Shown here piece after piece: positions 12,779 through 37,581 of a stretch of 64,000 nucleotides of DNA. The translations under genes and the position numbers were made by a program. Source of the DNA: an uncultured Aquimarina sp. (GTDB lineage: Bacteria > Bacteroidota > Bacteroidia > Flavobacteriales > Flavobacteriaceae). The notes below the pieces were generated by a model, which saw only the letters and a program-made list of their open reading frames with translations, did no database searches and was not told where the DNA came from. How positions within the stretch are numbered: position 1 is the first letter of the stretch; every line of letters starts with the position of its first letter. The DNA lies in NCBI GenBank assembly GCA_947498595.1, contig CANMKX010000021.1:9594-73593 (forward strand). The letters are read 5' to 3'.

Positions 12779-12806
12779 ATTTTACATAATATTAATTATA
12801 GTACAA
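12779..12806 (-). other. Probable chromosomal dif (XerCD) site
   Basis: Minus strand TTGTACTATAA-TTAATA-TTATGTAAAAT has the 11-6-11 dif layout (cf. E. coli GGTGCGCATAA-TGTATA-TTATGTTAAAT). It is intergenic, and most genes to its right are on the minus strand. Confidence 0.7.
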
Positions 12807-12845
12807 ATTATATCATATACCAGCTTTATAAGAATAATCCGTATT

Positions 12846-12874
12846 TGTAGCTATAATTCTCTATTATGTAAAAT
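12846..12874 (+). other. dif-like site with 7-bp spacer, inverted relative to dif
   Basis: TGTAGCTATAA-TTCTCTA-TTATGTAAAAT; XerD-type arm identical to that of 12779-12806. Confidence 0.6.
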
Positions 12875-13024
12875 ATCCCAGAATGTTCTCGTTTCTTAAT
12901 CATATATAGTATTTGGGTCATTAAGCATGCGTGTTTTGGCTTTTCGTTTAAACTGAATATTCTGTACAATCGTTCATAATTTTTCAAATGCGCGATTCTC
13001 AAGAAACATTCTAACTTAAAAATT

Positions 13025-13053
13025 TGTAGCTATAATTAGCCATTATGTAAAAT
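13025..13053 (+). other. Second dif-like site with 7-bp spacer
   Basis: TGTAGCTATAA-TTAGCCA-TTATGTAAAAT; both arms identical to 12846-12874, spacer differs. Confidence 0.6.
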
Positions 13054-13239
13054 TGCCTCTTGCCAAAATTGCTCGTATTGTTTTTTGTAAATAATTATGC
13101 TAAGCAGTAATTTTTCCAAACACAATTTACCAACGCTTTCCAGCCGCACAAAAAGCTTACATTTCGTTTTAAATTAAATTTTCGTTGAATATGGAATTCT
13201 CGTTGTAATTTTTTTCAGGAGCTTTTCGTTAAACTATAC

Positions 13240-13296
13240 GCAAGAGTATAAAATTTTCCTACCGCATCATCCACGCTAAAATTTCTATACACTTGC
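13240..13296. repeat. Imperfect hairpin whose loop carries the CCGCATCATC motif of repeat block B
   Basis: GCAAGAGTATAAAATTTT...AAAATTTCTATACACTTGC. Confidence 0.55.
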
Positions 13297-13627
13297 TAAC
13301 ATAGTAACTAAAAATTAACTTTTTTCATTCTTGCGCTATTAGGTATTTTAAAAATTGATACTCAATCAATTCTTTAAAATAGTGTCTTGAAACAAAAGAA
13401 ACAAAAATTCAAGGCTTCAGATAATTTTGGAAACAATTACGGTTTATTCGCTATATTTCAGAAAACATTCTAACTAGTTAATCTTGTTCTGAATTAGCCT
13501 TAAAGTTTGTATTAATTAAGAATATGTACTGCTAAAACTCTAAAATATAGACGCTCATTTCACCTATTGTTTTCACTAAAATTCTCTGAGGCCGTTTTTT
13601 TATAATGCTAACTTCTATTTAACATAA

Positions 13628-13927
13628 TTATTGAGATGGTCTCAATATTAGCTCATATCTATTATTGCCTATTGTAATAGTCATTTCGGAGTTAATTAAT
13701 CTTAAGCTCCAAATTTCAATGGAGTTTTCATTATCAAAAATTAACATCCTTGTATTATCAGGAGTTAATTCAGATAAAATAAGGTTATTTGTACTTATTG
13801 AATTCTCCCCTCTCTGAAGTAAATCTACTAGATTACCGTAATTAGGGTTTCCATTACGACCAATATATAAATTGAAATTATTCCCTAACCAAAGCCCTTG
13901 AATATCATTTAATGTGATTTCTTGCAT
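13628..13927 (-). CDS. Hypothetical protein (99 aa)
   Basis: ATG ORF directly downstream of the XRE gene; no family recognised. Confidence 0.6.
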   Translation of the reverse strand: MQEITLNDIQGLWLGNNFNLYIGRNGNPNYGNLVDLLQRGENSISTNNLILSELTPDNTRMLIFDNENSIEIWSLRLINSEMTITIGNNRYELILRPSQ

Positions 13928-13968
13928 TATTATTTATTTTAATTACGTTGAAAACTTTACTAAGACAA

Positions 13969-14175
13969 TCATTTTGTAGAAACTAGTAATTCTCTGATAT
14001 TTACATCTAGAATTTCTGCAATTATTTTTAAATCTTTTAAATGCGGTTGTGATTTATTATTACAAAATGCAGTTACAGACGTTGTACTTTTTCCCAATTT
14101 TTCCGCAAGCCACACTTGTGATTTTCCTTGAATTACTAAAACTTCTTTTATTCTATTTATCCTATCTACTGCCAT
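13969..14175 (-). CDS. XRE/Cro-C1 helix-turn-helix regulator
   Basis: NRIKEVL...SQVWLAEKLGKS...NKSQP...IAEILDV pattern. Confidence 0.9.
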   Translation of the reverse strand: MAVDRINRIKEVLVIQGKSQVWLAEKLGKSTTSVTAFCNNKSQPHLKDLKIIAEILDVNIRELLVSTK

Positions 14176-14212
14176 AACTATTGATGTATTCCACCTTAAA
14201 TATATAACACAT

Positions 14213-14305
14213 ACTTATCAAAACATAAGTTTAAGTTAAGTTTTATTAATTTAAACTTGTGTTTTCGAATTTTTTATATAAGTTTGAATTGACTTTATAT
14301 AAGTT
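14213..14305. promoter_or_regulatory. Candidate operators in the divergent promoter region
   Basis: ACTTAT-N6-ATAAGT (14213-14230); AAACATAAGTTTAA-N16-TTAAACTTGTGTTT (14221-14264); TTTATATAAGTT twice, 21 bp apart; TAAGTTTG -7 box near 14278. Confidence 0.4.
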
Positions 14306-14367
14306 AAAATTGCATAAATGTAATTTTTAATTGAATTTTTATTGTTAATAACTTTATTCCAAACTTT

Positions 14368-14565
14368 ATGCCATATCCTAAATATACCAAAGCCGACCTT
14401 GAACGAATTGTACATACTCAATTAGAAAACTTAAATGCTATTCACGATTTACTTAAAATTATGAAACTTCAAAATGAATTGATTGAAAATGCCAATAAGA
14501 AATTAAAAGATGAAATAACCGACTTTAAGAAACGGGTTAATTATGGAACTAATAAAAATAAATGA
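14368..14565 (+). CDS. Small coiled-coil hypothetical protein, divergent from XRE
   Basis: 65-aa ORF with heptad-like Leu pattern. Confidence 0.6.
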   Translation: MPYPKYTKADLERIVHTQLENLNAIHDLLKIMKLQNELIENANKKLKDEITDFKKRVNYGTNKNK

Positions 14566-14589
14566 TATATTATTTTAGTAATTTATATT

Positions 14590-17310
14590 TTAAAAACCAT
14601 ACTTAACTTCTCGTTTTTTAAAGGCTTCTTTACCGCCTTCAACAATATCAGCTATATGCTCTCTAATACCCATACTTTTTAATAAATCTTTTTCCTTAGA
14701 ATCAAATTCCTTTGAGTTTTCAATGGGACCATTTATATAATCAAATTTGTACGGGCTAGAGGTTTCCTTATCATTTTGTCCTTTTTGGTTTGCGACTATT
14801 ACATTTTCAGCATCAGCATTAACTACTACATTTGGATTATGTGTGACTAAAATTATTTGTCTATCAGTCTTCTTATCTCTTAAATATTTAACCAAATCTT
14901 TAGTTATAGATCTATTATCTAAATTATCCTCAGGTTGATCAATTAAGATAGGTGCTTTAGAACTACTTAACCCTACAATTAACATTAGTATTACAAAACT
15001 TGCTTTACCTGTGGACATTTCGCCCATTTTGTCTCCATCATATTCGGTTTCCCAATAATCTACAAAATAATCGTCCAATAGAACTTTAACAGCATTTTTT
15101 ATACTTGTTTTAGTGTTTAGTACAAAGGTTTCATCTTCGACTATTGCTTTGAACATTTTTTTTAGTTCTTCAAGTTCTTCGGTATTTCTAAAATCTATTA
15201 AATCATTTTTACTTTGAAGTATTAAATATTCTTTCTCAGGATAACTTCTACCATCACTTATATCATACAAAGATTTTATAAACTTCCGTCCGTTAAATTT
15301 TTGTGTTCCAATTATCTCCAAATTTTGCTCTTCCAGTAATTTAGTTCTCTCATTAAGCGTAGAAATTATTTTTGGATATTCATTAGAGTTTTCAACGTAT
15401 AATTCGAATAATTTGTCTTTGTTTTTTTCTAATTCTTCTTTACTATTTTTAATTTCTGTTTTTAACTGAGTAATGGCTTGCAGCTTCTGTTTATCTGCTG
15501 TTACTATTTTATCTATTTCAGTAATTTGTTGTTTGACCTTATCATTTTTTATTAGAGGCTCAAGCACCTTTTCTAATCTTATTTTTTCTTCTTTATTTGT
15601 TTGTAATAAACTACTAAATAAGTTTTCATTCACAAATACATTTTCTTCAGTTCTAATAGATTCAGTAAACAAATCTAGATCACTAATTGCAACATCTAAA
15701 AAGCTATATTTTGTAGTGAATAAGTCCTTTAGTGATTCAGTTTCTAAAGATTTTTGAGTTAGGTCTTTCTTGTTTTTCAACTCTTTTAAAGAGTTTAAAA
15801 TATCTCTATTAAAATTAGATAATTTTCTATAATCATTTATAATTTTAATCCTTTCGGCTTCAATTTTTTCAAGTTTAACTTTTTCGGCATTATAAATAGC
15901 TATTTCCTCTGGTGTTAAACCAATACCTTTTTTAAGTTCTGAAATCTTTTCTATATTGGATGTAACACTTTTTGTTAAAACTTCCTCATTCCCTTTTTCT
16001 TTTAATTCTTTAACTTTAGTTTTTATATTCTCTTTGGTTTCAAAATAACTATCAATTAAATCACTTCTCTTTTTATCATTTGATTTTACTTTACTGAGAA
16101 AATCTTGATAATAATTTTTATAAATTTCATCTTCTAATAATAATCCTCTTACATATTTTAAAAGTTCTTCCCCTTTTTTATTTGCTTTTGGTTCTGCTAG
16201 TTTTGTTAGATAATTTTGAGGTATATATTTTATATTAGGAATAATAGAATTTGCTTTTTCATCAAATAATTTTTGGGAAACACCAGATAATGATTTAACC
16301 TCAAAATTAAAATTTTCATCATCTTTTCTGAAATCGTATTTGTCATTTGTAATTGACGTAACCTCACCGTTAGTTTCTAAAGTTGTGGCAATATTGTATA
16401 AAAGTATTGACTTACCAGAAGACTTTCCTCCTATTATAACATCTAGGTTTTTATTGAATTTAATTTTCTCAGGTGTAAATAAATTATTGGACGAGAAATA
16501 TTGTACTTCATCAATAATCAACTTATCTTCTTTAAAATCTGGTTCATTAGGTTGTAGTTTTAATCGTTCATTTGGTTCATATATAATTTGTTTTAATCCC
16601 TCAAATGTAGGATCTGCTTTTATCCAAAGTTTTTCTTTTCTTTTATAATCTCTAATATTATGATTGTCAGAACAAATAATGGTTGGCAACCATTTATTTA
16701 TTTTTTTATTCAAGTATGGGTTTACTTTTGTATTATAACCTTCGATATCTGATATTTTACCTAATTCAAAAATATCGACGATTTTAGCAATGTCTTCTTT
16801 TTGAGCTAAAGAATGAGGAAGTGAGTGAGTTAAATTCTCCAATCCATTACTTTTTGAACCTGCGTGAATACTAACAATACCATTTAGTTCTTTTATTAAT
16901 TTAATAGTATCAGCTAAATCACAATAAACTTCATTAAATTTTTTATTTTCTCCTTCAATTTTTTTAAGTTCAGTATTATTTTTTAGCTGACCCCATATAT
17001 AATCTAAATTACAATTTTCACTAAATATTGCTATAAAATGGATTGGTTCATTACCTCGTGCATCAGATAAGAACTCAATTCCAGGCAAAACAGTTACCCC
17101 TTTATTTTCACCTATACTTTGTAGTTCTTTTATTCTTTTTACATCAATTAAATTATGATCCGTTATAGCTATTACGCTAATATTATCATTAATTAAACCA
17201 TCTATTATATCTTGATTAGTAACACTTTTGTCTTTATAATCATAAGATGAAGGTGTGTGAAAATGAAGATCCCATTGTTTCCATTCTGAACCCCTAGTTT
17301 TTTGTGCCAT
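14590..17310 (-). CDS. PHP-domain phosphoesterase fused to ABC/SMC-like ATPase (TrlF / Ppl-like, candidate anti-phage protein)
   Basis: PHP motifs WDLHFHTP, ITDHN, PGIE, SDNH; Walker A GGKSSGKS; coiled coil; MSTG signature; IDQPEDNLD Walker B; VTHNPN H-loop. Confidence 0.82.
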   Translation of the reverse strand: MAQKTRGSEWKQWDLHFHTPSSYDYKDKSVTNQDIIDGLINDNISVIAITDHNLIDVKRIKELQSIGENKGVTVLPGIEFLSDARGNEPIHFIAIFSENCNLDYIWGQLKNNTELKKIEGENKKFNEVYCDLADTIKLIKELNGIVSIHAGSKSNGLENLTHSLPHSLAQKEDIAKIVDIFELGKISDIEGYNTKVNPYLNKKINKWLPTIICSDNHNIRDYKRKEKLWIKADPTFEGLKQIIYEPNERLKLQPNEPDFKEDKLIIDEVQYFSSNNLFTPEKIKFNKNLDVIIGGKSSGKSILLYNIATTLETNGEVTSITNDKYDFRKDDENFNFEVKSLSGVSQKLFDEKANSIIPNIKYIPQNYLTKLAEPKANKKGEELLKYVRGLLLEDEIYKNYYQDFLSKVKSNDKKRSDLIDSYFETKENIKTKVKELKEKGNEEVLTKSVTSNIEKISELKKGIGLTPEEIAIYNAEKVKLEKIEAERIKIINDYRKLSNFNRDILNSLKELKNKKDLTQKSLETESLKDLFTTKYSFLDVAISDLDLFTESIRTEENVFVNENLFSSLLQTNKEEKIRLEKVLEPLIKNDKVKQQITEIDKIVTADKQKLQAITQLKTEIKNSKEELEKNKDKLFELYVENSNEYPKIISTLNERTKLLEEQNLEIIGTQKFNGRKFIKSLYDISDGRSYPEKEYLILQSKNDLIDFRNTEELEELKKMFKAIVEDETFVLNTKTSIKNAVKVLLDDYFVDYWETEYDGDKMGEMSTGKASFVILMLIVGLSSSKAPILIDQPEDNLDNRSITKDLVKYLRDKKTDRQIILVTHNPNVVVNADAENVIVANQKGQNDKETSSPYKFDYINGPIENSKEFDSKEKDLLKSMGIREHIADIVEGGKEAFKKREVKYGF

Positions 17311-17412: not shown

Positions 17413-17584
17413 AATCCCATTCCATACACATTTTGCCTCCACTCCTCTGCCCTTTCAGCAAAAAGAGTATTCCATTACCTTTTTAGAGAAACTTTTCGAG
17501 AAGAAAAAAATCAAAGAAGATTTGTCTTTGGTAAAAGCTTTTACCCAAGCAAAGTTACATAACGCAGAACATTATAGTACAAAT
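17413..17584. repeat. Inter-module repeat R1
   Basis: ATTCCATACAC stem, A-rich tract GAAGATTTGTCTTTGG, palindrome GGTAAAAGCTTTTACC (17530-17545), then AAGTTACATAA-9bp-TTATAGTACAA, whose right arm is identical to the dif arm. Confidence 0.85.
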
Positions 17585-17711: not shown

Positions 17712-18983
17712 TTACCCATAAATTAATTCAATATTTGCAATTATAATAGTTTGTGAAACTTCATCTTTATTAATTTCTTTAAGCTCACTTTCTAATTCTT
17801 TCAATAGATTCGTATCCAAAATATTAACTAGTAATATTGGTCTAATTGTTTTATTTTGAAAAGTATCAATTTCTTTAATTCTACTGATATCTTTAGACAA
17901 CTTCCCAAAATGTTCTCTTATTTTACTTTTTAATTTATTTTCGGATGTACTAAGTTTATACATTTTAATTTCTACAAAATTTACAGCTCCATTATTTTCA
18001 TAAACACAATCAATTTCGATATCGTTTAAAAACATTCTATTACTAGTGTAAACAATTCCTCTTGACTCTAATATATTACACAAAGCATTTTGTAACAAAC
18101 CATCTTTTTCCTTTACTATTTGATATATATCTTCATGTAGTTTATAAGGAACATAATAAGCTAATTCACTAGCACATACAGGACATTTTAAATTATTCAA
18201 TTTATTTGGACTAACTTTTAATTGAAAACTGCCTTTATATGTTCCAGGAGGACAATTAGTACATTCAATTAAGGCATCTTCTATGCTTGAAGAAATTATA
18301 TTACATTCATACAAGAGATTAAATAGTTTAATTCTAGACTCAAAGTTATCCTCTCTACTTAGTGCATTTACTAAAATCTGATTTGTATTATAAAGCACTT
18401 CATTATTTAAGTTTACATAAAAGTCTTTTAAATGTTTTACACCGTCTAGGAATAAGATTATATTTTCCTCAGAAAACAATTCACTATTTTTTTTAAAAAT
18501 ATAATTCTTTTGAAATAAATTTGAAACTTCTTCAAAGGTCAATATATTTCTACCTACAAAACCATATTCTTTAAGAAAAGAAATCCCTGTTTGCTCTTTA
18601 TCTTCATCCTTGATAATATTACAAATAGCAGCTATAACACTTTCTGGATCTTTTTCTAAACCTTCAAGCAATTTATTAATAGGTTTATCGAGACTCTTTT
18701 TAAGAATATTTTCTATTAAAGGCTTAAAGTAATTAAATTTAGAAGTTAAAGAAGATTCATTATTGATGTTATTATTTTCGTTTCTGATTTTAATTGTATT
18801 TCCAATAAAATCATTCGCATCGACATTAGAAATTGTAATTCGGGGTTTAGAGTATCGCTTTTCACCGAAACCATAATTAAATAATTTAGAATCTAATAAC
18901 TCCTCTTTAGACATTAAGAATAAATTTTGGCAAGATTTATTTTGCCAAAATAAATTATAAAATTTTTTTTGAATATCACTCAT
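17712..18983 (-). CDS. Hypothetical protein with Zn-ribbon and C-terminal PD-(D/E)xK nuclease-like domain
   Basis: CTNC...CPVC, then EIDCV-x10-VEIK. Confidence 0.6.
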   Translation of the reverse strand: MSDIQKKFYNLFWQNKSCQNLFLMSKEELLDSKLFNYGFGEKRYSKPRITISNVDANDFIGNTIKIRNENNNINNESSLTSKFNYFKPLIENILKKSLDKPINKLLEGLEKDPESVIAAICNIIKDEDKEQTGISFLKEYGFVGRNILTFEEVSNLFQKNYIFKKNSELFSEENIILFLDGVKHLKDFYVNLNNEVLYNTNQILVNALSREDNFESRIKLFNLLYECNIISSSIEDALIECTNCPPGTYKGSFQLKVSPNKLNNLKCPVCASELAYYVPYKLHEDIYQIVKEKDGLLQNALCNILESRGIVYTSNRMFLNDIEIDCVYENNGAVNFVEIKMYKLSTSENKLKSKIREHFGKLSKDISRIKEIDTFQNKTIRPILLVNILDTNLLKELESELKEINKDEVSQTIIIANIELIYG

Positions 18984-19372
18984 ATTATTAATTAGTAGTC
19001 CCTTCTTTTAATAATTCAAATGAGTTCCCAATTTCATTATTATTTTCTTTAAATTTCATTTTATAGCATTTTAATATTTTCCAAAAAGCCAGTGTAATTT
19101 TAGCCTTTTAATATTAATCAAACTATCTTCATAAAGTAAATTTGTTGGCGTTATAAAAATATAAAACTGCGGATAAACTAAAGCTGTTAAATGTCAATTT
19201 TTTCAACTATTTTTAAACACATTATAAGATTCTTGCTTACAGGAAGTTAAACATGTTTTATTAACTATAAATAATGACAAGAAGAAACTATTTTATCACT
19301 AATTATAATGATGAAAAGCAAGATGTAAAAATTAATCTAATCGTATAATTTAAATAATTATAGGCAAATCAA

Positions 19373-19499
19373 ATCATTTCATACACATTATATTCCCCTC
19401 CTTTTCTCGGGCCGTATAAAAGTATTTCATTAAAAATAAAGAGATAAACTTTGCTTTACCCAAGCAAAGTGACATAACCGCAAGTACATTATAGTACAT
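19373..19499. repeat. Inter-module repeat R2 (shortened, diverged)
   Basis: ATTTCATACACATT stem; hairpin ACTTTGCTT-TACCC-AAGCAAAGT (19448-19470); AAGTGACATAA-11bp-TTATAGTACAT. Confidence 0.7.
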
Positions 19500-19934: not shown

Positions 19935-20663
19935 CTACCAATTAGCTACTTCATTAATAAAACTTTCATATAAATCAGAAGATTTATTAGGGCAACCACC
20001 ATAATTATGAATTCCGATAGCAACGGCTCTATTCTTTAATAATGCTCCTCCACTTTGACCACCAAAAGTGTCCGCATCATAGTAAAATCTTCCAGACTTC
20101 TTAATCAAGTTATCTGTCATTCTATATTGAAAAAGTCCATTGTCTCTATCCGCAGGATAGCCACAAATCTCTCCATAATTAGAATCTTCTATTGATGGTG
20201 TTATGAATTCATTGAACGTTACTGGTTTATTAAGTTTAATAGCTCCCATATCGTAGCGAGTAGATTTATTATCTATCCAACCTTTAGTAGCTGCTACACT
20301 TATGGCTTTATATCGTCCATAAGGTTCTGACAATCCAGATTTGGCTGGAATAACTATTATGCTTTCCTTCCATCCCCCTGTGCTATGACTAAAAACACAG
20401 TGTCCTGCAGTATATAATTTATCTCCTGAAACTAACCAACCAGAGCCAACATATGTTCTACCATTAGGAGCTTTCATATATAATTTACAAATAGCTATAT
20501 ATGGTAATTGATTTGTTGAAACCACCTTTTGTCGTTCATCAATTCCGCAAATCGATTCAGGAGTGAGTTCATTTTCTAATTCAATCCAGTTTTCTCTTGT
20601 GATTTCAGATTCGTTTATTTTATTTTTGTTTCCACTTATTTTATGAAAGATTAGTTTTTCCAT
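19935..20663 (-). CDS. V8-like glutamyl endopeptidase (trypsin fold) without signal peptide
   Basis: Triad motifs TAGHC, RYDMG, GGQSGG; Glu-specificity residues in DTFG and GIHN; probable activation site PE/SICG. Confidence 0.85.
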   Translation of the reverse strand: MEKLIFHKISGNKNKINESEITRENWIELENELTPESICGIDERQKVVSTNQLPYIAICKLYMKAPNGRTYVGSGWLVSGDKLYTAGHCVFSHSTGGWKESIIVIPAKSGLSEPYGRYKAISVAATKGWIDNKSTRYDMGAIKLNKPVTFNEFITPSIEDSNYGEICGYPADRDNGLFQYRMTDNLIKKSGRFYYDADTFGGQSGGALLKNRAVAIGIHNYGGCPNKSSDLYESFINEVANW

Positions 20664-20693
20664 TCTATAAAAATTTAGATTTATTTAGAATAT

Positions 20694-20924
20694 CTATGCG
20701 CATAAAGAGTCAAGGGAACTAATAAGTAACTTCAATGCATCTCTCCATTTTTTTGGAATTAGAGGAATATTTGCTATTAGCCTAACAATACTTCCAATTT
20801 TATTCCATATCTGGCATATTTTAGAAGTTATATCTAGTGATTCTTGGTTTAAATCTGATTCTAATTGATTTAAATTTAAACTCTCAATTTCTTTGTTTAC
20901 CGATTCAAATGTTAATTCTGACAT
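20694..20924 (-). CDS. 76-aa peptide with acidic leader and cationic amphipathic core (two Cys)
   Basis: ATG ORF 30 bp upstream of the protease gene; composition read directly from the translation. Confidence 0.75.
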   Translation of the reverse strand: MSELTFESVNKEIESLNLNQLESDLNQESLDITSKICQIWNKIGSIVRLIANIPLIPKKWRDALKLLISSLDSLCA

Positions 20925-21010: not shown

Positions 21011-21231
21011 AATCCCATTCCATACACATTACCACTTCTCTCCTATCGTCGCTTCGGGCAAAGCGTATTCCATTACATTTTTAAAGAAACATTTGAGAAG
21101 AAAAAAATAAAAGAAAATTTGTCTTTGGGAAAATCCAACGCACCATCTCACGCATATATATAAAAGTCTACTAGACTTTTATATATATGCTGTACCAAAG
21201 CAAAGTTACATAACGTTTTATTATAATTATA
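21011..21231. repeat. Inter-module repeat R3 (most complete copy)
   Basis: Stem, A-rich tract, perfect 19-bp inverted repeat GCATATATATAAAAGTCTA-C-TAGACTTTTATATATATGC (21152-21190), then AAGTTACATAA-7bp-TTATAATTATA. Confidence 0.88.
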
Positions 21232-21850: not shown

Positions 21851-21885
21851 TAGAAGTCAATTTCATACATTCAACAACTATTCCT

Positions 21886-22165: not shown

Positions 22166-22180
22166 CTTTGGAATGCCAGC

Positions 22181-22264
22181 CACATCATCTCGCAGATATA
22201 ATAATTCCTCCACTGGAGAAATCATTATATCTCGTGTTTTACCAAAGTTTTCTGAGGCCGTTTT
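22181..22264. repeat. Repeat block B, copy at the left end of the ebo module
   Basis: Aligns by eye with 33208-33286; partial copies at 13252-13276, 13569-13598 and 32713-32749. Confidence 0.7.
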
Positions 22265-22271
22265 GCCTCCG

Positions 22272-27472: not shown

Positions 27473-27473
27473 T

Positions 27474-28379: not shown

Positions 28380-28393
28380 ATATTTAGTCTTTA

Positions 28394-29221: not shown

Positions 29222-29250
29222 ATTTTAATATGTTTTAAAATCTTTACATT

Positions 29251-30384: not shown

Positions 30385-30429
30385 GATATTAATTATTTTT
30401 TAGTTGAATAGTCTTTTTTAAGTTTTAGC

Positions 30430-32169
30430 TTACGCTATTGTTTCTTTGGTTTCGCAGTCTATTACTCCCAAAATTCCATCCAGATAATTTAATATCATTT
30501 TTTGTTTGTCTCCAGATAAATCTCTGGTTGCAGGCATATAATTCGGATCTGTTTTCTCTTTACTAAATACAAATTTCAAAATTTTGGCATTATTATCTAC
30601 TACCTCTTGTTTTGCTAAATTAAATACTCCTTTAGACATTAACGGATAAAGGTTAGCATACTGTTGCATAGTAGGTTGAAGATCTTCCCACGTAGGGCAA
30701 TCTATTTTTTCTTGTTTTACACTATCGAAAACCAGAAGGCTAATAAAGTTATTTTGATTGCCACCTGAGAAAGATTGTCCTTCTAGATTATAGGTTAAAG
30801 CATAGATTTGTCCATCTATAAACTCTCTAGGATTGTCAGGATCTCCAGCTGTAATTTCTAAAACAGCTGTTCCATATTCATTTGTTACTACTTGAGAAGC
30901 GTTCTGTATTGCCGAAGTTGGTACGCCTGTTACTGGGACTGGGGGATCATCAAACATATATGGCGCTTGTTGAATCTCTATCGTTTTATTTGCAGCTATT
31001 TTTCCTAATTCCGTAGCATAAAAATTAACTGCGCACTGTTCTTTAGGGTTTAAACGGAAAACAAACTTATCTGCTATAGCATATTCAGCACTTTCATTAA
31101 ATACCTGCGTAACTGTCGGGTCTAGAGTAAGCGTATTTGGGTTACTAGCCTGATAATCTACAATAGTTAATGGATATTTATTAACTAAATCTAATTGTTC
31201 TTTAGATAAGTTAAATGTACAACTCCCCGATTGTTGCATGTACCATCCTGGAACTCTATAATTAATTTTCCCTATATAATCATATTCTGGGACTTCTGCT
31301 GTACCAATATTTATTGCTAAAGTTAAATTACGAGTCTCTACTACCTCAACTTTTCCATTAACCTTTCCAAACTGCAAGGCATTAGATAAATCCATTGTAA
31401 TAGTCTTTAAACTGTCGTCTACAACTGCGGTCGCATAATTACAATTAGAACCAACTGGGAACATTTGTCTCCCTAAAACGCAATGGTTTGGTTCTAAAGT
31501 AGAAGATGGCCCTATAGAACCTGCTAATCTACCAATAGTAAATTCTGCTGATGTATGATCTAAATTATAACGATCTACCGTGAATTGAATAGATAGCATA
31601 TCTTTGCTAGCATCTTTTAATTCTTGAAGATATCTTGAATTAGATTGTTCTATATTCCAATTTATATTTGTAATTACTGATTGATAAGATGCTGTTGCTT
31701 TTCCTGCTCCGCCTTTTATATCTGTCGACCTGTTAAGCCAAAGATTTGTAAACGCTGCCTCTTTATAATCGCCTGTCATTAAATCATTCCCATCGTCCAC
31801 AATTCTAACTTGCATTCCCCAAATTTCAGAAACTCCTTGTTGTTGAGAATCTAAATCTACTATTTTACCAGCAACTCTTCCATCTGCATCCATAACGCTC
31901 ATTCCTATAATAGCATCGTCTTCAGGATTGCTTGTTGTAGTACCATCTTGATAGGTTACACTAGTAACCACACAATCTATTAATCTAAAATTACCTGTTC
32001 CGTCTGGATTCCACCAGCCATTAGTTCCGGGATTACCAGGTAAATTATAATCTTGAAATTCGGGACGAAACGTCGCATTATTAAAATGATTTGGATCATT
32101 ATTTACCGTTGAGGGATCGGCTTGAAACTTCCCTGAAAAAGTAAGCCTTGGCGTGTTTAAATAAGACAT
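30430..32169 (-). CDS. Protein resembling the N-terminal part of VioB / chromopyrrolate synthase
   Basis: N-terminus MSYLNTPRLTFSG and C-terminal LYPLMS...FNLA...YMPATRDLS..K...L.YL match my recollection of VioB/RebD; not verified by alignment. Confidence 0.62.
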   Translation of the reverse strand: MSYLNTPRLTFSGKFQADPSTVNNDPNHFNNATFRPEFQDYNLPGNPGTNGWWNPDGTGNFRLIDCVVTSVTYQDGTTTSNPEDDAIIGMSVMDADGRVAGKIVDLDSQQQGVSEIWGMQVRIVDDGNDLMTGDYKEAAFTNLWLNRSTDIKGGAGKATASYQSVITNINWNIEQSNSRYLQELKDASKDMLSIQFTVDRYNLDHTSAEFTIGRLAGSIGPSSTLEPNHCVLGRQMFPVGSNCNYATAVVDDSLKTITMDLSNALQFGKVNGKVEVVETRNLTLAINIGTAEVPEYDYIGKINYRVPGWYMQQSGSCTFNLSKEQLDLVNKYPLTIVDYQASNPNTLTLDPTVTQVFNESAEYAIADKFVFRLNPKEQCAVNFYATELGKIAANKTIEIQQAPYMFDDPPVPVTGVPTSAIQNASQVVTNEYGTAVLEITAGDPDNPREFIDGQIYALTYNLEGQSFSGGNQNNFISLLVFDSVKQEKIDCPTWEDLQPTMQQYANLYPLMSKGVFNLAKQEVVDNNAKILKFVFSKEKTDPNYMPATRDLSGDKQKMILNYLDGILGVIDCETKETIA

Positions 32170-32413
32170 ATTTAAATTTTAGTTATATATTTAAGAGTAA
32201 GTTGGTTTTATAGTTCTATATGAAGTATGTAATTGAACTACTCTAATTTTATTGTTTTTCAAAACATAAAATTAGATATTACTGTATAATTAATTATGGG
32301 TATAAATACCTGTTTTTTTTATAAATCTACTAATTAAATACATTTTTTATCCGCTAAAAGCCATAATAAACGAGCATGCTATTTTAAAATGAAACAATAA
32401 CAGTAATGCTAAA

Positions 32414-32630
32414 CCATTGCATACACATTTCCACTTCACTCCTATCGACGCTTCGAGCAATGCGTATTCCATTATAGTAGTAGAAGAAACTTTTTAGAAA
32501 GAAAAAAAGAAGATTTGTCTTTGGGAAAATCCAACGTATCACTTAGTTTCTATATATAAAAGTCTACTATACTTTTATATATATTTGTACCAAAGCAAAA
32601 TAGCATAGCACAAAACATTGTTGCGCATTC
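32414..32630. repeat. Inter-module repeat R5
   Basis: Highly similar to R3 (CCTATCGACGCTTCGAGC, GAAGATTTGTCTTTGGGAAAATCCAACG); 13-bp-arm palindrome at 32551-32583; degenerate terminal site. Confidence 0.85.
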
Positions 32631-32964
32631 TATAAATAGGTTTGTCTTACTAGATGAGGCTATTTATAACTTAGATGATTCGCTGGCATTATTATCAATA
32701 ATATATCTTTCTATTTTCCATCCGCATCATCTCGCAGCTTATTATAATTGATTTGACGATCAATAATAATAACTCGTGTAAACATCCCATAGTAATTCTA
32801 TACTATTATTTTCCTCGCTAAAATCTTGCTTAAAAATTTCTTTACACTTGTTATATATAGAATTTCGAATAACTCTTTTTTCTTTGTCTTTGTTTTGAAA
32901 CAAAAAAATCAAGTTTACATACGGGCACAACGTTAATAAAATACACAAAAGTATGTTTTTAGTG

Positions 32965-33090
32965 AAGCAGCAAGTTGGCGTGTTAGAGAAACAATTAACG
33001 TAGCAGTCACTATATTTTAGGCGGTACAAAATCAAAAGTCAACTAGATTTTTGATTTTGTGAGCGAGCTGGTGTGTTGGCAGTTTACACA
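32965..33090. other. GC-richer structured segment with hairpin; possible transfer/replication-origin remnant
   Basis: ACAAAATCAAAA-GTCAACTAGAT-TTTTGATTTTGT (33026-33060) shares the AAAAGTC.ACTAGA.TTTT core with the R3 and R5 palindromes. Confidence 0.35.
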
Positions 33091-33207
33091 TTTTGTTCAA
33101 TCTAAGCTACTACCATTATCAAGTCGTATCATCTCATAGCTTTATAAAATTGTTTCTATCAATCAATTTTGTAAACTCGTCTAAAATATGCATGCTCATT
33201 TTCCAAC

Positions 33208-33286
33208 CGTATCAGCTCGCTGCTATACTAATTCCTTCACTGGAGTTATCACTATATCTTGTGTTTTAGTCAAAATTATATAAGGC
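33208..33286. repeat. Repeat block B, copy right of the ebo module
   Basis: TAATTCCTTCACTGGAGTTATCACTATATCTTGTGTTTTA versus TAATTCCTCCACTGGAGAAATCATTATATCTCGTGTTTTA at 22202. Confidence 0.7.
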
Positions 33287-33339
33287 TAACTCATTAAAAT
33301 AATTGAGAGAAGGGTTAATTGTAGTTATATTACAAACTA

Positions 33340-34689
33340 TTATTCTTTAGTCCAAACTGAAGTTTTTCCATTTTGTTCCCAGATAATCTTATTTTCTTCT
33401 GGTTTGAATTCAAATTTAGCACCAATAGCCCCAATTCTAAAGGTGTGCTTATCTATTGCGGTTGCAGGGAATAAATCTTGCATAGTTCCTTGTGCTGTTA
33501 AAATATTTCCATTTTTACCAATGGTAATTTTTAGCCATTTTGGTACATCAGGTGATGAATAAAGACCTAAATATTGATCTAATTCTTCTGATGTAACATC
33601 ATAAGTTGGTCCAAATTCAGGAATTTTAAATGGTTTATTATACATAGCATCCAAAACTGTTTTTTGAATATCTCGATCTTTAAAATTTAATCCATTGGTA
33701 GCAAACGTATAGATTAAATCATCTTCAGGAATATAAATATAGTTAGCTCTAAAACCATCAATAGTTCCTGGATGTTCATAAGCTATTTTTCCATTAACAT
33801 CTATTTCAAAAATTCCTAAACCTACTGTATCTTGAATGTTCTTCATTTTCTTTAGTGTTTCTTGATTTAGAATTTCTCCTCCAAAGAGAGCTTTAACGAA
33901 CTTTACTAAATCTATTGTTGTAGAAACCATGCCTCCTGCTCCTAATGGAATAGAAATGCTTGTTTCTGGTTCAACAGACCAATCTGCTATATATTTATAT
34001 GACTTACTCTCCTTTTTTGAAGTATCTATAGTGTCATCTAGATACGTATTACTTAATTGAAGTGGTTCCGTAATTTTTTCTTTTAAAATTTCATTAAATG
34101 TTTTGCCGTAAACTTTCTCCAAAATACGCGTTAATAAAATAAAGTTAGAATTACTGTAATAGGCTTTAGAATTTGGCGCAAACTGACTTTCACCGTTTCG
34201 AATAATCGTTAAAATTTCATCACGAGTTTTATCTTCTGTTCTCCAATCTAAAAAGTTAGGCTCGCTAGTTACACTATAAATGCCACTTCTATGGTTAAGT
34301 AAATATTCAATTTTTATGTCTTTGGCATTTTTAATTCTAGGATAGAATTTATCAAGTTTATCTTCTAAACTTAATTTTCCTTCTTCAACTGCCTTTAAAG
34401 TTAAAACTGCGGTGAAAGTTTTAGTGGTTGAGCCAATCCTGTACTTTGTATTCTCATCTGCTTTAGTTTTGTTTTCATAATCTGAAAACCCAACTGTTTT
34501 AGAATACACTATTTCTCCCTCTTTCATAACAGCTACACTTCCCATAAACTTATTTCCATCTTCTAAAGTTGAAAAATAATTGTCTAATTGAAATTTATTA
34601 AAATCAGGAGATAACGTGCTCCTATAAATATAAAATCCAACTAACATAGCTACTATTATTATGGTTATAATTATAATTCCTTTTTTCAT
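33340..34689 (-). CDS. Serine hydrolase, beta-lactamase/penicillin-binding-protein-like family
   Basis: STTK (SxxK), YSN (YxN), HPG; N-terminal membrane anchor. Confidence 0.88.
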   Translation of the reverse strand: MKKGIIIITIIIVAMLVGFYIYRSTLSPDFNKFQLDNYFSTLEDGNKFMGSVAVMKEGEIVYSKTVGFSDYENKTKADENTKYRIGSTTKTFTAVLTLKAVEEGKLSLEDKLDKFYPRIKNAKDIKIEYLLNHRSGIYSVTSEPNFLDWRTEDKTRDEILTIIRNGESQFAPNSKAYYSNSNFILLTRILEKVYGKTFNEILKEKITEPLQLSNTYLDDTIDTSKKESKSYKYIADWSVEPETSISIPLGAGGMVSTTIDLVKFVKALFGGEILNQETLKKMKNIQDTVGLGIFEIDVNGKIAYEHPGTIDGFRANYIYIPEDDLIYTFATNGLNFKDRDIQKTVLDAMYNKPFKIPEFGPTYDVTSEELDQYLGLYSSPDVPKWLKITIGKNGNILTAQGTMQDLFPATAIDKHTFRIGAIGAKFEFKPEENKIIWEQNGKTSVWTKE

Positions 34690-34728
34690 TGTAATAGTTT
34701 TGTTTGAAAATTTTAAAAATTTACTAGA

Positions 34729-35382
34729 TTATTTTATTTTATCTAAAGCTTCAGTAATCTTAACAACATACTTTTCAGCAAAGTTTAAATCTTTTTCGGG
34801 ATCAATAACACTTGAGGTAACAACTCCAACCAATTGTTCTTTTTCTTCTTTATTTATGTTGTATGCAACTGTCTCTATAACATATTTTGTAGATAATATT
34901 GTCTTTTTGGAAACAGGTATATATCCCTCAACATTTCGATGATAGCTTCCATATTCGTATAGAGAATGATAATAATCATCGAAATCATTATAATGAGTTT
35001 CATCTTTAATAGTGTAATAGGATCTTTTTAAATCCTTAACTGAAGTAACAACTATACCTTTATATCCTTTCTTCGTTATAGTATTTTTTATTTCTTGCAT
35101 TAGACTATTTGTTATCTTGCTATTCACATTAATTTGAGGATATTCTCTATAACTTTCGGTCACATTATACCCTCTCATTGTCATCTGTTTAACTATTCCT
35201 TCCTCGATAGTTATACGTGTACTATTATCAGCAGTTCGTGCTATTACCAAAATGTTTTGTTCTTTGAAATTATTCAATCTAACGCGGTCTGCTTTCCAGG
35301 CACTTAATACTTTAATACTTGAGCAACTATGGAACACAATCACCATTAAAAGGATCATAATTCTTATAATTTGGCTTCTCAT
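34729..35382 (-). CDS. Putative lipoprotein
   Basis: Hydrophobic signal peptide ending FHSC. Confidence 0.7.
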   Translation of the reverse strand: MRSQIIRIMILLMVIVFHSCSSIKVLSAWKADRVRLNNFKEQNILVIARTADNSTRITIEEGIVKQMTMRGYNVTESYREYPQINVNSKITNSLMQEIKNTITKKGYKGIVVTSVKDLKRSYYTIKDETHYNDFDDYYHSLYEYGSYHRNVEGYIPVSKKTILSTKYVIETVAYNINKEEKEQLVGVVTSSVIDPEKDLNFAEKYVVKITEALDKIK

Positions 35383-35446
35383 TATTTTAGTTGTTTAAAT
35401 TTTGCGCTACAAAACTGTAAATTAGTTAGATACTGCTAAAAAATAC

Positions 35447-35551
35447 TCAATTAACGTATTGATATTTTCAATCAATGATATCATAAGATCAACTTTGTTA
35501 TTGTTTGAATAATTCACTTTATTCATTGAAAAAAAAAGCTTACTTATTGAA
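35447..35551. promoter_or_regulatory. Two oppositely oriented sets of putative LytTR boxes
   Basis: TCAA(T/C) at 35447/35468/35489 and (A/T)TTGAA at 35504/35525/35546, each set at 21-bp spacing, in a divergent promoter region. Confidence 0.5.
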
Positions 35552-35603
35552 CTTTATTTTTGTATTTTACTATTTTCCTAATTTTGACAAAAACTAAGAT
35601 TGA

Positions 35604-36638
35604 ATGTCATTAAAACTAAATGTCAATTTATTACGTAACCCATTTATATTTTGGCTTGTTGTTGGCTTACTATACTATGGCATTTTATCATATTGGAATC
35701 CTACTGAAGCTTTGTTTTTTGCTTTTCAATTTGCTCTTATGCAAGGAATAATAGTAGCGTTTAACACTAAATACTTGCTCAAGAAACTAGAATATGACTC
35801 TGTTAAATACAAAACTCTCTCAATATTATTATTAGTTATTTTCTCTGGTTTGTCTATGGTAATTATGGCCTTATCTATTAATTATTTATTGCCTCCTCGT
35901 CTATCAAGTCAAAATCAATCAGTTCCTATTTTATGGATTTTCTTTATGAATATTCTAGCTTTAGGTGTTCCATTATTCATAAGTACATTTTTTCATATTT
36001 TAAGAAAAGAACGAGAGTATCGTATGCAAATTCAAGATTTAGAAAAGTTGCAAAATGAAACTGAATTAAAGTTTTTAAAAAGTCAGATTAATCCGCATTT
36101 TCTATTTAATGCGTTAAATAATATATACACTATAAGTTATACAGGTGATGCATCGGCTCCAGAAAAAATATTAATATTGTCCGATATGCTTCGTTATGTT
36201 CTTTACGATTGTAAGAGTAAAAAAGTGTTAATTTCTCGTGAATTGGAATATGTAAAATCGTTTATAGAATTTCAACAATTAAAAACAGAGTTTCCACAGA
36301 ACATTAATTTTCAAATTGATGAAGTAAATGAATCAATACAAATTGCTCCTATGATAATAATTCCATTTATAGAAAATAGTTTTAAGCATAGTAAAATAGA
36401 CACCGATAAAAATGCTTGGGTAAGTGCATTTATTAAAGTTGACAACGATAATTTAGTTTTTCAAATTGAAAATACAATACCAAAAGTTTCTCCACAAAAT
36501 TGGTTAAGCTCTGAAGGTGGCATAGGATTAGAAAATGTAAAAAAAAGATTAGAACTTCTATATTCGCAGAAATACACTTTGAAAATTGTTTCTAATGCTA
36601 GTACTTATTATGTTAACTTAACCATCAATTTAAATTAA
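35604..36638 (+). CDS. LytS/YehU-type histidine kinase
   Basis: SQINPHFLFNALN, IENSFKHS, GGIGLENV. Confidence 0.9.
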   Translation: MSLKLNVNLLRNPFIFWLVVGLLYYGILSYWNPTEALFFAFQFALMQGIIVAFNTKYLLKKLEYDSVKYKTLSILLLVIFSGLSMVIMALSINYLLPPRLSSQNQSVPILWIFFMNILALGVPLFISTFFHILRKEREYRMQIQDLEKLQNETELKFLKSQINPHFLFNALNNIYTISYTGDASAPEKILILSDMLRYVLYDCKSKKVLISRELEYVKSFIEFQQLKTEFPQNINFQIDEVNESIQIAPMIIIPFIENSFKHSKIDTDKNAWVSAFIKVDNDNLVFQIENTIPKVSPQNWLSSEGGIGLENVKKRLELLYSQKYTLKIVSNASTYYVNLTINLN

Positions 36639-36639
36639 T

Positions 36640-37380
36640 ATGGAACGTATCAATTGCATTATTATAGATGATGAATTTTTAGCTCGTAAGCTATTAACTG
36701 ATTACATAGAAAAATTACCTCAGATTCATTTACTGAAAAGTTTTGACAATGCTTTAAATGCTCTTGATTATGTTAATAGAAATGTTATTGATTTGATTTT
36801 TTGCGACATCCAAATGCCTGATTTAACCGGAATTGATTTTATAAAAAGTTTGCAACAAAAACCTGTTATTATTTTTACAACTGCATATTCTGAATTTGCG
36901 ATTCAAGGTTACGAACTAGATGTCACCGAATATTTACTAAAACCTTTTTCTTTACCTAGATTTATAAAAGCCGTTAATAAAGCTACTGAAATTATACGTT
37001 TAAAGCGTATAGCTCATAAAAATTTAAATTTTGAGAATACTTCAATTGAAAAAGTTTCAAATAAAGAAAATAAAAGCTTTATGCTTATTAAATCTGATCG
37101 CAAAATCCATAAAGTATTTTATGATAGTATTCTGTTTATTGAAGGTGCACTTGAATATGTAAATTTTTTCACCAAAGAAAAACGTATTTTAGGCCTTTAT
37201 TCTTTAAAAGAACTAGAAGATTTGCTTCCCAACTCTAATTTCATACGAGTACATAAATCTTATATTATAGCACTTAAAGAGATTAGTGAAGTTGATGGAA
37301 ATCAAATAATTATTCAAGAACACAAAATCCCGATAGGGAAAAGTCACAAAACAGAATTTCTTAAACGTTTTGGGGTATAA
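36640..37380 (+). CDS. LytTR response regulator
   Basis: IDDEFLA, DIQMP, YLLKP, FIRVHKSY. Confidence 0.92.
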   Translation: MERINCIIIDDEFLARKLLTDYIEKLPQIHLLKSFDNALNALDYVNRNVIDLIFCDIQMPDLTGIDFIKSLQQKPVIIFTTAYSEFAIQGYELDVTEYLLKPFSLPRFIKAVNKATEIIRLKRIAHKNLNFENTSIEKVSNKENKSFMLIKSDRKIHKVFYDSILFIEGALEYVNFFTKEKRILGLYSLKELEDLLPNSNFIRVHKSYIIALKEISEVDGNQIIIQEHKIPIGKSHKTEFLKRFGV

Positions 37381-37435
37381 CTTTTCACCTTTTTGTGAGC
37401 CAATAATTTAATAATTATTGTGTAGAAAGAATTTA

Positions 37436-37581
37436 AATTCACACATTCTACTTCTCTCCTACCGTCACTTCGAGCAAAGCATATTACATTATAGTTGCAA
37501 AGAAACTTTTTAAAAAGAAAAAAAATAAAAGAAGATTTGTCTTTGGGAAAGCACTACGCACCACCTCATTCCTATATATAA
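37436..37581. repeat. Inter-module repeat R6 (truncated in the palindrome)
   Basis: CTTCTCTCCTACCGTCACTTCGAGCAAAGC, GAAGATTTGTCTTTGGGAAA, TATATATAAA, then divergence. Confidence 0.8.

Follow-up and report, generated by a model that had tools for sequence, protein, structure and literature searches.

The locus considered here belongs to an uncultured Aquimarina sp. (GCA_947498595.1; genome size 4.9 Mb) and lies on an 81-kb contig, CANMKX010000021.1, of which positions 9,594–73,593 of the forward strand (64,000 nt, the window) were analyzed. It contains a chromosomal dif site followed by six units, each composed of cargo genes and a non-coding backbone of approximately 1 kb, with a hairpin core upstream of the cargo. 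The cores were located by repeat search and with a covariance model built from 45 copies, and the cargo was assigned with Pfam and PADLOC. The features are as follows, from dif outward:

12779–12806, minus strand: chromosomal dif, TTGTACTATAA-TTAATA-TTATGTAAAAT (XerC-type arm, 6-bp centre, XerD-type arm in minus-strand reading)
12843–12874, minus strand: S2, dif-like site in inverted orientation, 7-bp centre, 36 nt away from dif
13022–13053, minus strand: S3, another inverted dif-like site, also with a 7-bp centre
13054–13632, minus strand: block X, conserved non-coding part of the backbone
13628–17310, minus strand: unit 1 cargo (nearest dif), 99-aa ORF, HTH protein (13969–14175) and 906-aa PHP+ATPase protein (14590–17310)
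17413–17584, minus strand: R1, core (17413–17525, 102.9 bits), second hairpin and dif look-alike (17552–17584)
17712–18983, minus strand: unit 2 cargo, 423-aa protein without a family match (GC 24.0%, the lowest in the array)
19370–19499, minus strand: R2, shortened core (19370–19474, 50 bits) and decayed site (19467–19499) with an 11-bp centre, site score 27/38
19935–20924, minus strand: unit 3 cargo, trypsin-like protease and 76-aa ORF
21011–21231, minus strand: R3, core (21011–21122, 111.4 bits), inserted 34-nt palindrome (21154–21188), site score 18/38
21249–21783, minus strand: unit 4 cargo, ParE/ParD toxin-antitoxin pair
21880–22030, minus strand: R4, core (21880–21987, 46 bits) split by a ~50-nt insertion, without a remaining site
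21995–32169, minus strand: unit 5 cargo, ebo-like biosynthetic cluster of eight genes; 76-aa ORF (21995–22225)
32410–32610, minus strand: R5, core (32410–32518, 89.2 bits), 34-nt palindrome as in R3, badly decayed site with score 15/38
32760–37380, no single strand: unit 6 cargo, beta-lactamase-fold hydrolase, 217-aa ORF, LytS-like kinase and LytTR regulator (kinase and regulator on the plus strand)
37430–37582, minus strand: R6, most distal core copy (37430–37539, 65.3 bits), without a site

Repeats, cargo and recombinase genes

The dif site is identical at 27 of 28 bases to the dif of Gramella forsetii predicted by Kono et al. (2011), and the array directly adjoins it, in agreement with the sequence-only reading of this DNA, in which the array was said to begin at a probable chromosomal dif. 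Of 15 other Aquimarina genomes, 12 each contain a single consensus dif with the TATAAA spacer and one more has a near variant of it. Full dif-like sites in the genome studied here are confined to this locus. The GC-skew switch expected at about 12.8 kb received rough support, the skew being +0.007 to the left and −0.105 to the right of dif. The switch is soft, with the cumulative maximum on the 81-kb contig 10.8 kb to the left of dif, and dnaA does not lie opposite dif in three complete genomes of Aquimarina; both observations count against the reading of the locus as a stack at dif.

All six direct repeats named in that reading are real and lie where it placed them. The repeat unit it outlined was too small, as the full unit takes in two inverted dif-like sites and a structured block of about 600 nt. 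Short, structured and non-coding repeats of this kind recall dispersed REP or MITE-type repeats or a known RNA family. However, blastn against the genome, a check that had been suggested, found copies solely in this locus, within one 20-kb stretch, and because of this restriction they are not a genome-wide REP or MITE. Rfam gave no match at the gathering score in the whole window and none at E up to 1 between 12 and 38.5 kb. REP, BIME, MITE or a known Rfam RNA is thus refuted, and the probability left to this explanation is close to nil. Six same-strand units beside dif form a one-way cassette array with one point of insertion.

Most of the module contents proposed earlier were borne out by Pfam and PADLOC, except for the “nuclease” of unit 2, whose 423-aa protein matches no family. 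The PHP+SMC_N ATPase of unit 1 matches the defence protein Ppl (4.6e-27). A segment of the same unit (13960–14550) has counterparts with 82–88% identity in three other genera, and in two of these genera it lies between mapped core copies, whereas orthologues within the genus are about 74% identical; a whole element common to two genera was not found. The ebo-like cluster includes phosphodiesterase, DHQ-synthase-like, UbiA, TatD and ferritin-like families. Gene content between the repeats varies among relatives, as the platform reading predicted; genome-wide scatter of the copies and identical gene order, two outcomes that had been named as refuting it, were not seen. In genome G002 the same three unit 6 genes directly adjoin dif. 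The cargo recorded in arrays includes Ppl, ParDE, IetAS, the ebo-like cluster and a GH43 hydrolase.

The window was said to hold no recombinase or transposase gene, and a scan of 47 larger ORFs in the part from 8.9 to 64 kb detected no such domain. The host possesses, on other contigs, a XerD-like protein of 298 aa (TIGR02225, 321 bits against a cut-off of 329.6), which passes NF001399, and a XerC-like protein of 296 aa (TIGR02224, 291 bits, under the cut-off of 335). It could be considered that the cassettes are captured by a dedicated enzyme whose gene lies elsewhere in the genome, an integron-integrase or another type of tyrosine recombinase, with the host Xer pair uninvolved. The genome has 15 tyrosine-recombinase matches, several of them Xer-like by sequence, which would suit this proposal. 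However, none is on the 81-kb contig, most are on short contigs resembling other mobile elements, and the array sites share an arm with the genus-specific dif and include no attC-type site. We regard capture by a dedicated enzyme as very unlikely.

The dif look-alike site and the non-coding backbone

The motif TTACATAA-N5-11-TTATRG occurs four times in the window against 0.06 expected. The reported identity of the R1 arm and the dif arm was confirmed (TTATAGTACAAAT). The dif-like ends of R1–R3 are as had been described, but not the spacer of 7–11 bp: intact copies have a conserved 9-bp centre, TGTTCTGCG, and the other spacer lengths are products of decay. The look-alike, ATTTGTACTATAA-TGTTCTGCG-TTATGTAACTT, is nearly invariant in more than 20 genera, and the R1 site (minus strand) agrees with the consensus for the family at all 38 positions. 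When compared to dif, its XerC arm is identical, its XerD arm agrees at 9 of 11 positions and its centre has 9 bp instead of 6 bp. The R1 site and the decayed sites of R2 and R3 have the same orientation as dif; at R3, an altered XerD arm alone is retained (21203–21213). From R1 to R6, moving away from dif, the site scores are 38, 27, 18, 8, 15 and 8 of 38. This decay supports stacking at dif, although the gradient is not strictly monotonic, which counts against it.

The second part of the backbone lies next to dif. S2 is conserved beside dif and beside internal junctions in other genera, and S2 together with dif is predicted to form a forked hairpin as single-stranded DNA (z = −6). Block X contains a long hairpin (~13413–13595), a small hairpin and, at the cargo end, a XerD-arm half-site (13612–13627), with no ORF of at least 50 aa and no Rfam match. 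Its best-conserved ~210 nt (13383–13598) are 73–83% identical in dozens of genera. For the 39 pairs predicted in block X, 96.7% of cells pair compared to 91.2% in shuffles, and ten pairs are changed on both sides, a number reached in 0 of 500 shuffles. The core hairpin, like block X, shows covariation and many G-U pairs on the cargo strand. The structured backbone, lying on the cargo-sense strand, probably serves either cargo expression, as a 5′ leader and a 3′ element, or a role in single-stranded element DNA.

Distribution in Flavobacteriaceae and junction structure

The system had been framed as that of one flavobacterium, which does not hold: its spread is family-wide. The core covariance model matches 101 of 300 Flavobacteriaceae genera, and core copies are present in 102 of 301 genomes of the family, clustered and on a single strand. 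Clustering beside dif, another proposed check, is seen both in Aquimarina, where seven other genomes have the same placement, and across the family. Among the 16 genomes of other genera in which both dif and core copies could be placed, 14 have the copies 3–70 kb from dif, on the XerC-arm side and pointing at dif. In three genomes, G209 (extra clusters), G335 and G269, core copies lie far from dif, which counts against the link. These data bear on the possibility that the repeats are immobile regulatory sequences (promoter, leader or terminator) resident in a plastic terminus region, where they were duplicated locally and genes were shuffled in by other means. The location of cores upstream of cargo, on the cargo strand and with structure on that strand, would fit such a role, and the surroundings of the terminus in any case show little conservation of gene order. 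However, the position and orientation strictly tied to dif in 14 of 16 genera, the dif-like ends, the junctions that duplicate the dif arm and the 82–88% identical cargo segment across genera all speak against resident DNA, and this explanation appears highly unlikely.

In Hyunsoonleella ulvae, the S3-S2-XerC-arm block is duplicated and the similarity stops exactly at the border of arm and centre. Beyond this border, one duplicate continues into the 9-bp centre and core, whereas the 6-bp centre and XerD arm follow the other. The XerC arm and 20 nt of flank are duplicated in G002, and an internal junction of G121 has the whole backbone in one piece. Such junctions look like products of integration at the XerC-arm border. 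In G121, dif and an internal junction also have the same XerC-arm variant, a possible sign of homogenization instead of import. A circular form was not seen in seven small metagenome contigs.

The same junctions could also be explained if mobile elements settle at dif by RecA-dependent homologous recombination through the ~1 kb backbone. The 9-bp-centre site would then be a disabled copy of dif that spares dimer resolution, or it would have another role. The backbone provides 0.7–1 kb of homology (75–90%), a single crossover in it predicts identical junctions and the duplicated S3-S2-arm structure, and Xer catalysis at a site with a 9-bp centre would be unusual. This explanation, which we consider unlikely, does not account for the near-invariant look-alike and spacer across more than 20 genera, nor for the Xer-type-arm design of the backbone with its two inverted full sites.

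Proposed mechanism and comparison with known systems

With moderate confidence, the locus can be described as a chromosomal dif followed by six stacked small integrative elements, all without a recombinase gene. The favoured reading, held with the same confidence, is that these are IMEX-like elements using host Xer enzymes, an integron-like arrangement without an integrase. The earlier idea of an integron-like, host-Xer-driven accretion platform at dif is largely supported. The anatomy, the association with dif, the distribution, the make-up of the junctions, the covariation and the host genes similar to xerC and xerD are observed, whereas Xer catalysis, mobility, a circular intermediate, the insertion order and the function of the structured parts are what we infer. 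In the circular form that is envisaged, the backbone would run in the order block X, S3, S2, XerC-type arm, 9-bp centre, altered XerD arm, hairpin and core hairpin, followed by cargo. Host XerC/XerD would recombine the look-alike with dif at the border of XerC arm and centre, in an exchange of the first-strand type, as known for CTXphi and VGJphi. Integration would rebuild an intact dif, with the XerC arm from the element and the centre and XerD arm from the chromosome, and leave on the far side a disabled hybrid site with the 9-bp centre. New elements would therefore enter at dif, and older ones would be shifted outward, where their sites would decay. The centres of tyrosine recombinase sites usually have 6–8 bp; with a 9-bp centre, the altered XerD arm is no longer in register, so that internal sites may simply be non-functional. 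More speculatively, the backbone could be a mobility module without a protein of its own, in which hairpins and inverted dif-like sites work in single-stranded cassette DNA, perhaps via conjugative transfer or another export of terminus DNA. Host XerC would integrate the folded site as for CTXphi, and defence genes would be captured in marine Flavobacteriaceae wholly by housekeeping enzymes. We put this forward as a tentative and rather doubtful extension.

The arrangement at dif appears to be undescribed. If the host Xer enzymes drive the array, then about a third of the genera of Flavobacteriaceae, a major marine family, would have a platform at the replication terminus that captures genes without an integrase and stocks anti-phage systems (Ppl and IetAS), toxin-antitoxin pairs and clusters of metabolic genes. 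IMEX biology would extend to Bacteroidota from a few phages and islands of Proteobacteria, and the cassette design, set by conserved structured non-coding DNA and not by genes, would be new. The core hairpin and block X are two new conserved structured elements. Core copies beside dif also give a sequence marker for novel defence genes, which can be searched for between them, and the locus provides a testable case of dif as an accretion point while chromosome dimer resolution is kept.

Among known systems, IMEXs (CTXphi, VGJphi and TLCphi of Vibrio cholerae, and the gonococcal genetic island) resemble the array in their location at dif, tandem stacking and lack of their own recombinase. In both, the host has XerC-like and XerD-like genes, the element site is dif-like with a non-canonical centre, and one junction retains a working dif while the other is non-canonical. 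The predicted folding of a nearby inverted dif-like site with the main site recalls the forked hairpin of CTXphi attP(+) (PMC4246890). Unlike IMEXs, the units have no phage, replication or transfer genes and share instead ~1 kb of structured non-coding DNA; their cargo is defence, toxin-antitoxin and metabolic, the host belongs to Bacteroidota, arrays reach six to nine units, and the element family extends over about a third of the genera of one bacterial family.

In pdif modules, the sites alternate in orientation and have 6-bp centres. The array does not belong to this class, defined by alternating 28-bp sites with 6-bp centres: the R1–R3 sites share the orientation of dif, and intact centres have 9 bp. 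Both pdif modules of Acinetobacter and chromosomal dif modules (PMC12907356) are similar to the array as small recombinase-less modules between Xer-type sites, with toxin-antitoxin and accessory cargo. However, pdif modules are mostly on plasmids and without a conserved backbone, whereas the array has direct sites with internal 9-bp centres, and the chromosomal dif is its anchor.

Integrons, especially sedentary chromosomal ones, share with the array a single insertion point, one-way cassettes each with a structured site, toxin-antitoxin cassettes and the best-preserved site nearest the insertion point. Assignment to integrons was rejected: no tyrosine recombinase (IntI) is encoded on the 81-kb contig, and the repeat ends, judged by eye, are dif-like arms instead of attC (GTTRRRY, paired inverse core and core). 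The array has no IntI gene, attI or attC; its sites are dif-derived, each cargo is preceded by the structured element, which reads in the direction of the anchor, and cassettes can reach 10 kb.

At the plasmid Xer sites cer and psi, accessory DNA makes recombination independent of FtsK. Like them, the array has at least ~200 bp of conserved sequence flanking the core site on its XerC side, but in the array a long hairpin and two inverted dif-like sites lie within this sequence.

Repeats and the candidate dif site

The six related repeats in direct orientation that a sequence-only reading of this DNA had proposed were all recovered at their proposed positions, both by repeat search and by a covariance model trained on 45 copies, which gives exactly six matches in the 64 kb. 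The hairpin-bearing part of each repeat, the core, is placed as follows.

Repeat cores in the window, as placed by the covariance model
17413-17525, minus strand: core of R1
19370-19474, minus strand: core of R2
21011-21122, minus strand: core of R3
21880-21987, minus strand: core of R4
32410-32518, minus strand: core of R5
37430-37539, minus strand: core of R6

When the whole 4.9-Mb draft genome was searched with blastn, the six repeats matched this stretch only, and because the copies are confined to one stretch of the genome, a dispersed repeat of the REP or MITE type is excluded. Comparison of the repeats with Rfam gave nothing at the gathering score and nothing at E up to 1. Four matches to TTACATAA-N5-11-TTATRG are present in the window where 0.06 would be expected: the candidate dif, its two inverted neighbours, and the end of R1; the arm TTATAGTACAAAT is equal in dif and R1, as had been claimed. 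A 34-nt AT-rich palindrome, ATATATATAAAAGTCTACTAGACTTTTATATATAT, lies at an equivalent insertion point in R3 (21154-21188) and R5 (32551-32584) and is missing from the other copies.

The candidate dif at 12779-12806, read on the minus strand, is TTGTACTATAA-TTAATA-TTATGTAAAAT. It differs by one base, in the centre, from the site predicted for Gramella forsetii, TTGTACTATAATTTATATTATGTAAAAT (Kono et al., 2011, PMC3025954, supplementary file 2), which upholds its earlier assignment as a probable chromosomal dif. Very similar sites were predicted for other Flavobacteria (Kono et al., 2011), and that of Flavobacterium johnsoniae UW101, TTGACCTATAATTTATATTATGTAAAAT, has the same arms as the site in the window (PMC3025954). 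Twelve of 15 other Aquimarina genomes have the consensus form in single copy, and a 13th has a near variant. The proposed switch in GC skew was borne out in sign, from +0.007 left of dif to -0.105 right of it on its own contig, but not in sharpness; genes lie mainly on the plus strand to the left and mainly on the minus strand to the right. Skew and gene strand are thus compatible with a terminus, though not sharply. In three complete Aquimarina genomes (G002, G024, and G009), dnaA does not lie opposite dif but only 9-22% of the genome length away from it, which would mean either that dnaA is no marker of the origin here or that the two replichores differ in length. The terminus assignment therefore leans on the published dif prediction and the contig skew, not on dnaA. 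In relatives, orthologues of the genes at 47-50 kb, in the right flank, are 130-400 kb away from dif. Dif itself is straddled by a 55-nt inverted repeat (73%; 12683-12737 and 12947-13001), whose right copy is an insertion between the inverted dif-like sites S3 and S2, found in only 4 of 11 aligned genera.

The look-alike site and the structured non-coding DNA

In 34 aligned copies from more than 20 genera, the repeat end is a nearly invariant 38-mer, ATTTGTACTATAA-TGTTCTGCG-TTATGTAACTTTGCTT, in which the XerC-type dif arm is followed by a conserved centre of 9 bp and then by an XerD-type arm that is altered. R1 matches it at all 38 positions, R2 at 27, R3 at 18, R5 at 15, and R4 and R6 at 8 each, so that site quality drops with distance from dif, not strictly monotonically. 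The variable spacer of 7-11 bp described earlier does not hold: since the 38-mer is nearly invariant, R1 complete, and the other window copies lower, the intact form has the 9-bp centre and the other lengths represent decay. The altered XerD arm was also considered as a promoter, as TAACTTTG within it fits the Bacteroidetes -7 box consensus, TAnnTTTG; the motif is kept in only about half of the 34 copies, others having TAACTTGA or TTACTTTG, and the case for a promoter is weak.

Upstream of the XerC arm, where the sequence falls into two classes, lie S2 and S3, inverted dif-like sites with 7-bp centres. Elsewhere in the same genome, related sites occur as an inverted pair (TTACATAATAGTAGTTATGG and CCATAACTGCTATTATGTAAAAT) at about 1350-1420 of the 2059-bp contig C90, with a further copy on contig C245.

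Downstream of the look-alike site, a short hairpin with compensatory changes is accompanied by the core hairpin, which has 10 bp and the invariant loop CGACGATAGGAG. RNAalifold missed the core hairpin on the first alignments; it was defined by hand and then tested against shuffles and slid controls. Pairing is kept in 94.4% of cells (86.2% in shuffles) and 44 cells are changed on both sides (16 in shuffles); neither value was reached by any of 500 shuffles, and slid controls pair in 26-70%. The numerous G-U pairs place the structure on the cargo-sense strand. A leader peptide after the invariant AGGAG was rejected, as the ATG-TGT-ATG frame differs among copies in length and stop position.

A second non-coding element adjoins dif.

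13054-13632, minus strand: block X, non-coding, about 600 nt, between the cargo of unit 1 (the module nearest dif) and S3

About 210 nt of X, its best-conserved part, show 73-83% identity across dozens of genera, and part of the block lies beside dif in dozens of genera. Its long hairpin pairs in 96.7% of cells, compared with 91.2% in shuffles, and has 10 pairs changed on both sides, compared with 5.8; again 0 of 500 shuffles attain either value, and slid controls give 45-55% pairing. The block has no match in Rfam. The window holds a single copy, adjoining dif; the older units have lost X. At its cargo end (13612-13627) lies an XerD-arm half-site, which includes the sequence flanking dif in the chromosome as well, so that X is bracketed by inverted XerD arms.

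Cargo and recombinases

The modules between the repeats were assigned from Pfam and PADLOC.

Cargo of the six units
Unit 1: 99-aa ORF, HTH protein, and 906-aa PHP+SMC_N ATPase
Unit 2: 423-aa protein, no family match
Unit 3: trypsin-like protease and 76-aa ORF
Unit 4: ParD/ParE
Unit 5: ebo-like cluster (phosphodiesterase-glyoxalase, DHQ-synthase-like, UbiA, TatD, ferritin-like, others)
Unit 6: LytTR regulator, LytS-like kinase, and beta-lactamase-fold hydrolase

These assignments agree with the module contents first read from the sequence (PHP-ATPase, protease, ParDE, ebo, hydrolase with LytS/LytTR), except for the "nuclease", which is the 423-aa protein of unit 2 that lacks a family match. The ATPase of unit 1 matches the Ppl defence protein (4.6e-27). 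Location of the cargo on the minus strand with the repeat upstream holds for units 1-5. GC content is 26.7% in unit 1 and 24.0% in unit 2, against 30.5% for the genome. Beyond the last repeat, a truncated LytTR ORF (103 aa) and a 242-aa RHS-repeat fragment at 37651-39064 look like gene debris. An 860-aa KAP-family P-loop NTPase, overlapped by a 160-aa ORF, lies at 50505-53538 and may be a further defence-type gene outside the array.

A scan of the larger ORFs from 8.9 kb to 64 kb, 47 in number, confirmed the reported lack of a recombinase or transposase domain there. None of the 15 tyrosine recombinase matches of the genome is on the array's 81-kb contig; XerD-like (298 aa) and XerC-like (296 aa) proteins are encoded on other contigs. 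Xer-like tyrosine recombinases are found on the short contigs C77, C79, C56, and C59, C77 having two adjacent genes and C56 and C59 identical 136-aa fragments; these contigs probably represent further mobile elements at which the assembly is interrupted.

Distribution, junctions and a possible mode of integration

The repeat is present in 19 of 24 other Aquimarina genomes, mostly as 2-5 copies clustered at one locus, which, where contigs permit, lies 3-30 kb from dif with side and orientation unchanged. Across 301 Flavobacteriaceae genomes from 300 genera, the covariance model detects copies in 102 (101 genera), up to nine per genome, clustered and co-oriented. With the strict hairpin-core pattern, at least 120 loci were found in named genomes of many marine genera, including Winogradskyella, Maribacter, Polaribacter, Tenacibaculum, Lacinutrix, Formosa, Hyunsoonleella, and Dokdonia; a dif-like site accompanies the core in 91 of 148 loci examined, about 80-130 nt upstream in the copies checked. 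Dif was placed by pattern in 22 copy-bearing genomes, and in 14 of the 16 for which both positions are known, the copies lie 3-70 kb from dif, on its XerC-arm side, with the core pointing to dif. The predicted clustering at the terminus is thus seen beside dif in Aquimarina and other Flavobacteriaceae genera; the exceptions are G335 and G269, and G209 has additional core clusters distant from dif.

A phage link is contradicted by the near-absence of core and site patterns from 2.9 million viral contigs, where the rare matches have no core. In marine metagenomes, the site is abundant, and in most whole contigs examined it lies within about 0.7 kb of one end, as is expected of a repeat with variable neighbours. 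No terminal overlap indicating a free circular form was found in seven small site-bearing metagenome contigs. One metagenome contig (Ga0114956_1025613, 435-2500) has, as cargo on the downstream side of the site, a gene in which a unit of 153 nt is repeated in tandem about 13 times; the repeats look like the FG-GAP/VCBS type.

Cargo between the repeats differs among relatives, as had been predicted. In G002, the hydrolase/kinase/regulator trio known from unit 6 lies directly beside dif, and further cargo comprises the IetAS defence pair and a GH43/CBM6 secreted hydrolase; Hyunsoonleella ulvae carries a 786-aa protein. Three other genera have DNA with 82-88% identity to the stretch 13960-14550 (short ORFs and a small HTH gene), far above the approximately 74% of housekeeping orthologues within Aquimarina, and in two of them (G154 and G248) the match is flanked by mapped core copies and has the matching orientation.

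H. ulvae has two copies of the block S3-S2-XerC arm, which by eye resemble each other closely. One continues from the arm into TGTTCTGCG-TTATGTAACTT, core, and cargo, the other into TTTACA-TTATGTAAAAT and the chromosome, and similarity stops exactly at the border of arm and centre. In G002, the XerC arm and 20 nt of flank are duplicated, being present both at dif and where the first repeat ends, and at an internal junction in another genome (G121), X, S3, S2, arm, 9-bp centre, altered arm, hairpin, and core are contiguous. Such junctions are the product expected if a circle bearing a contiguous backbone (about 1 kb of non-coding DNA per element) recombined with dif at the XerC-arm border. The exchange would be confined to the XerC side, because the centres are unequal in length, the XerC arm is common to both, and dif is restored; integration would thereby restore dif and leave a hybrid site. 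The main rival is RecA-mediated integration via homology of the backbone, which predicts identical junctions. Judged from sequence comparison, the best-supported reading is that the array represents stacked elements of the IMEX type (integrative mobile elements exploiting Xer) integrated by host XerC/XerD.

S2 lies inverted, 36 nt from dif or the look-alike site, and as single-stranded DNA the two are predicted to form a forked hairpin in which the arms pair and the centre stays open (z = -2.5 to -6), resembling the folded attP of CTXphi. Because the sites are inverted copies, such a fold is to be expected, and it serves as a lead rather than as evidence. As for their role, the structured core and X may act in cargo expression as RNA elements, or they may belong to a single-stranded stage of the DNA.

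Full-text searches of the literature outside subscription journals gave no prior description in Flavobacteriaceae or Bacteroidota. The nearest known systems are the Vibrio IMEXs and the gonococcal island, the Acinetobacter pdif and chromosomal dif modules (PMC12907356), and integron cassettes. Compared with the Vibrio IMEXs and the gonococcal island, the elements here have a conserved, structured, and purely non-coding backbone, a conserved site with a 9-bp centre, direct sites, and a host of a different phylum. From the Acinetobacter modules they differ in the conserved structured non-coding backbone, the 9-bp-centre site, its direct orientation, and the host phylum; and from integron cassettes in the structured non-coding backbone, the conserved 9-bp centre, the direct sites, and, again, the phylum of the host.
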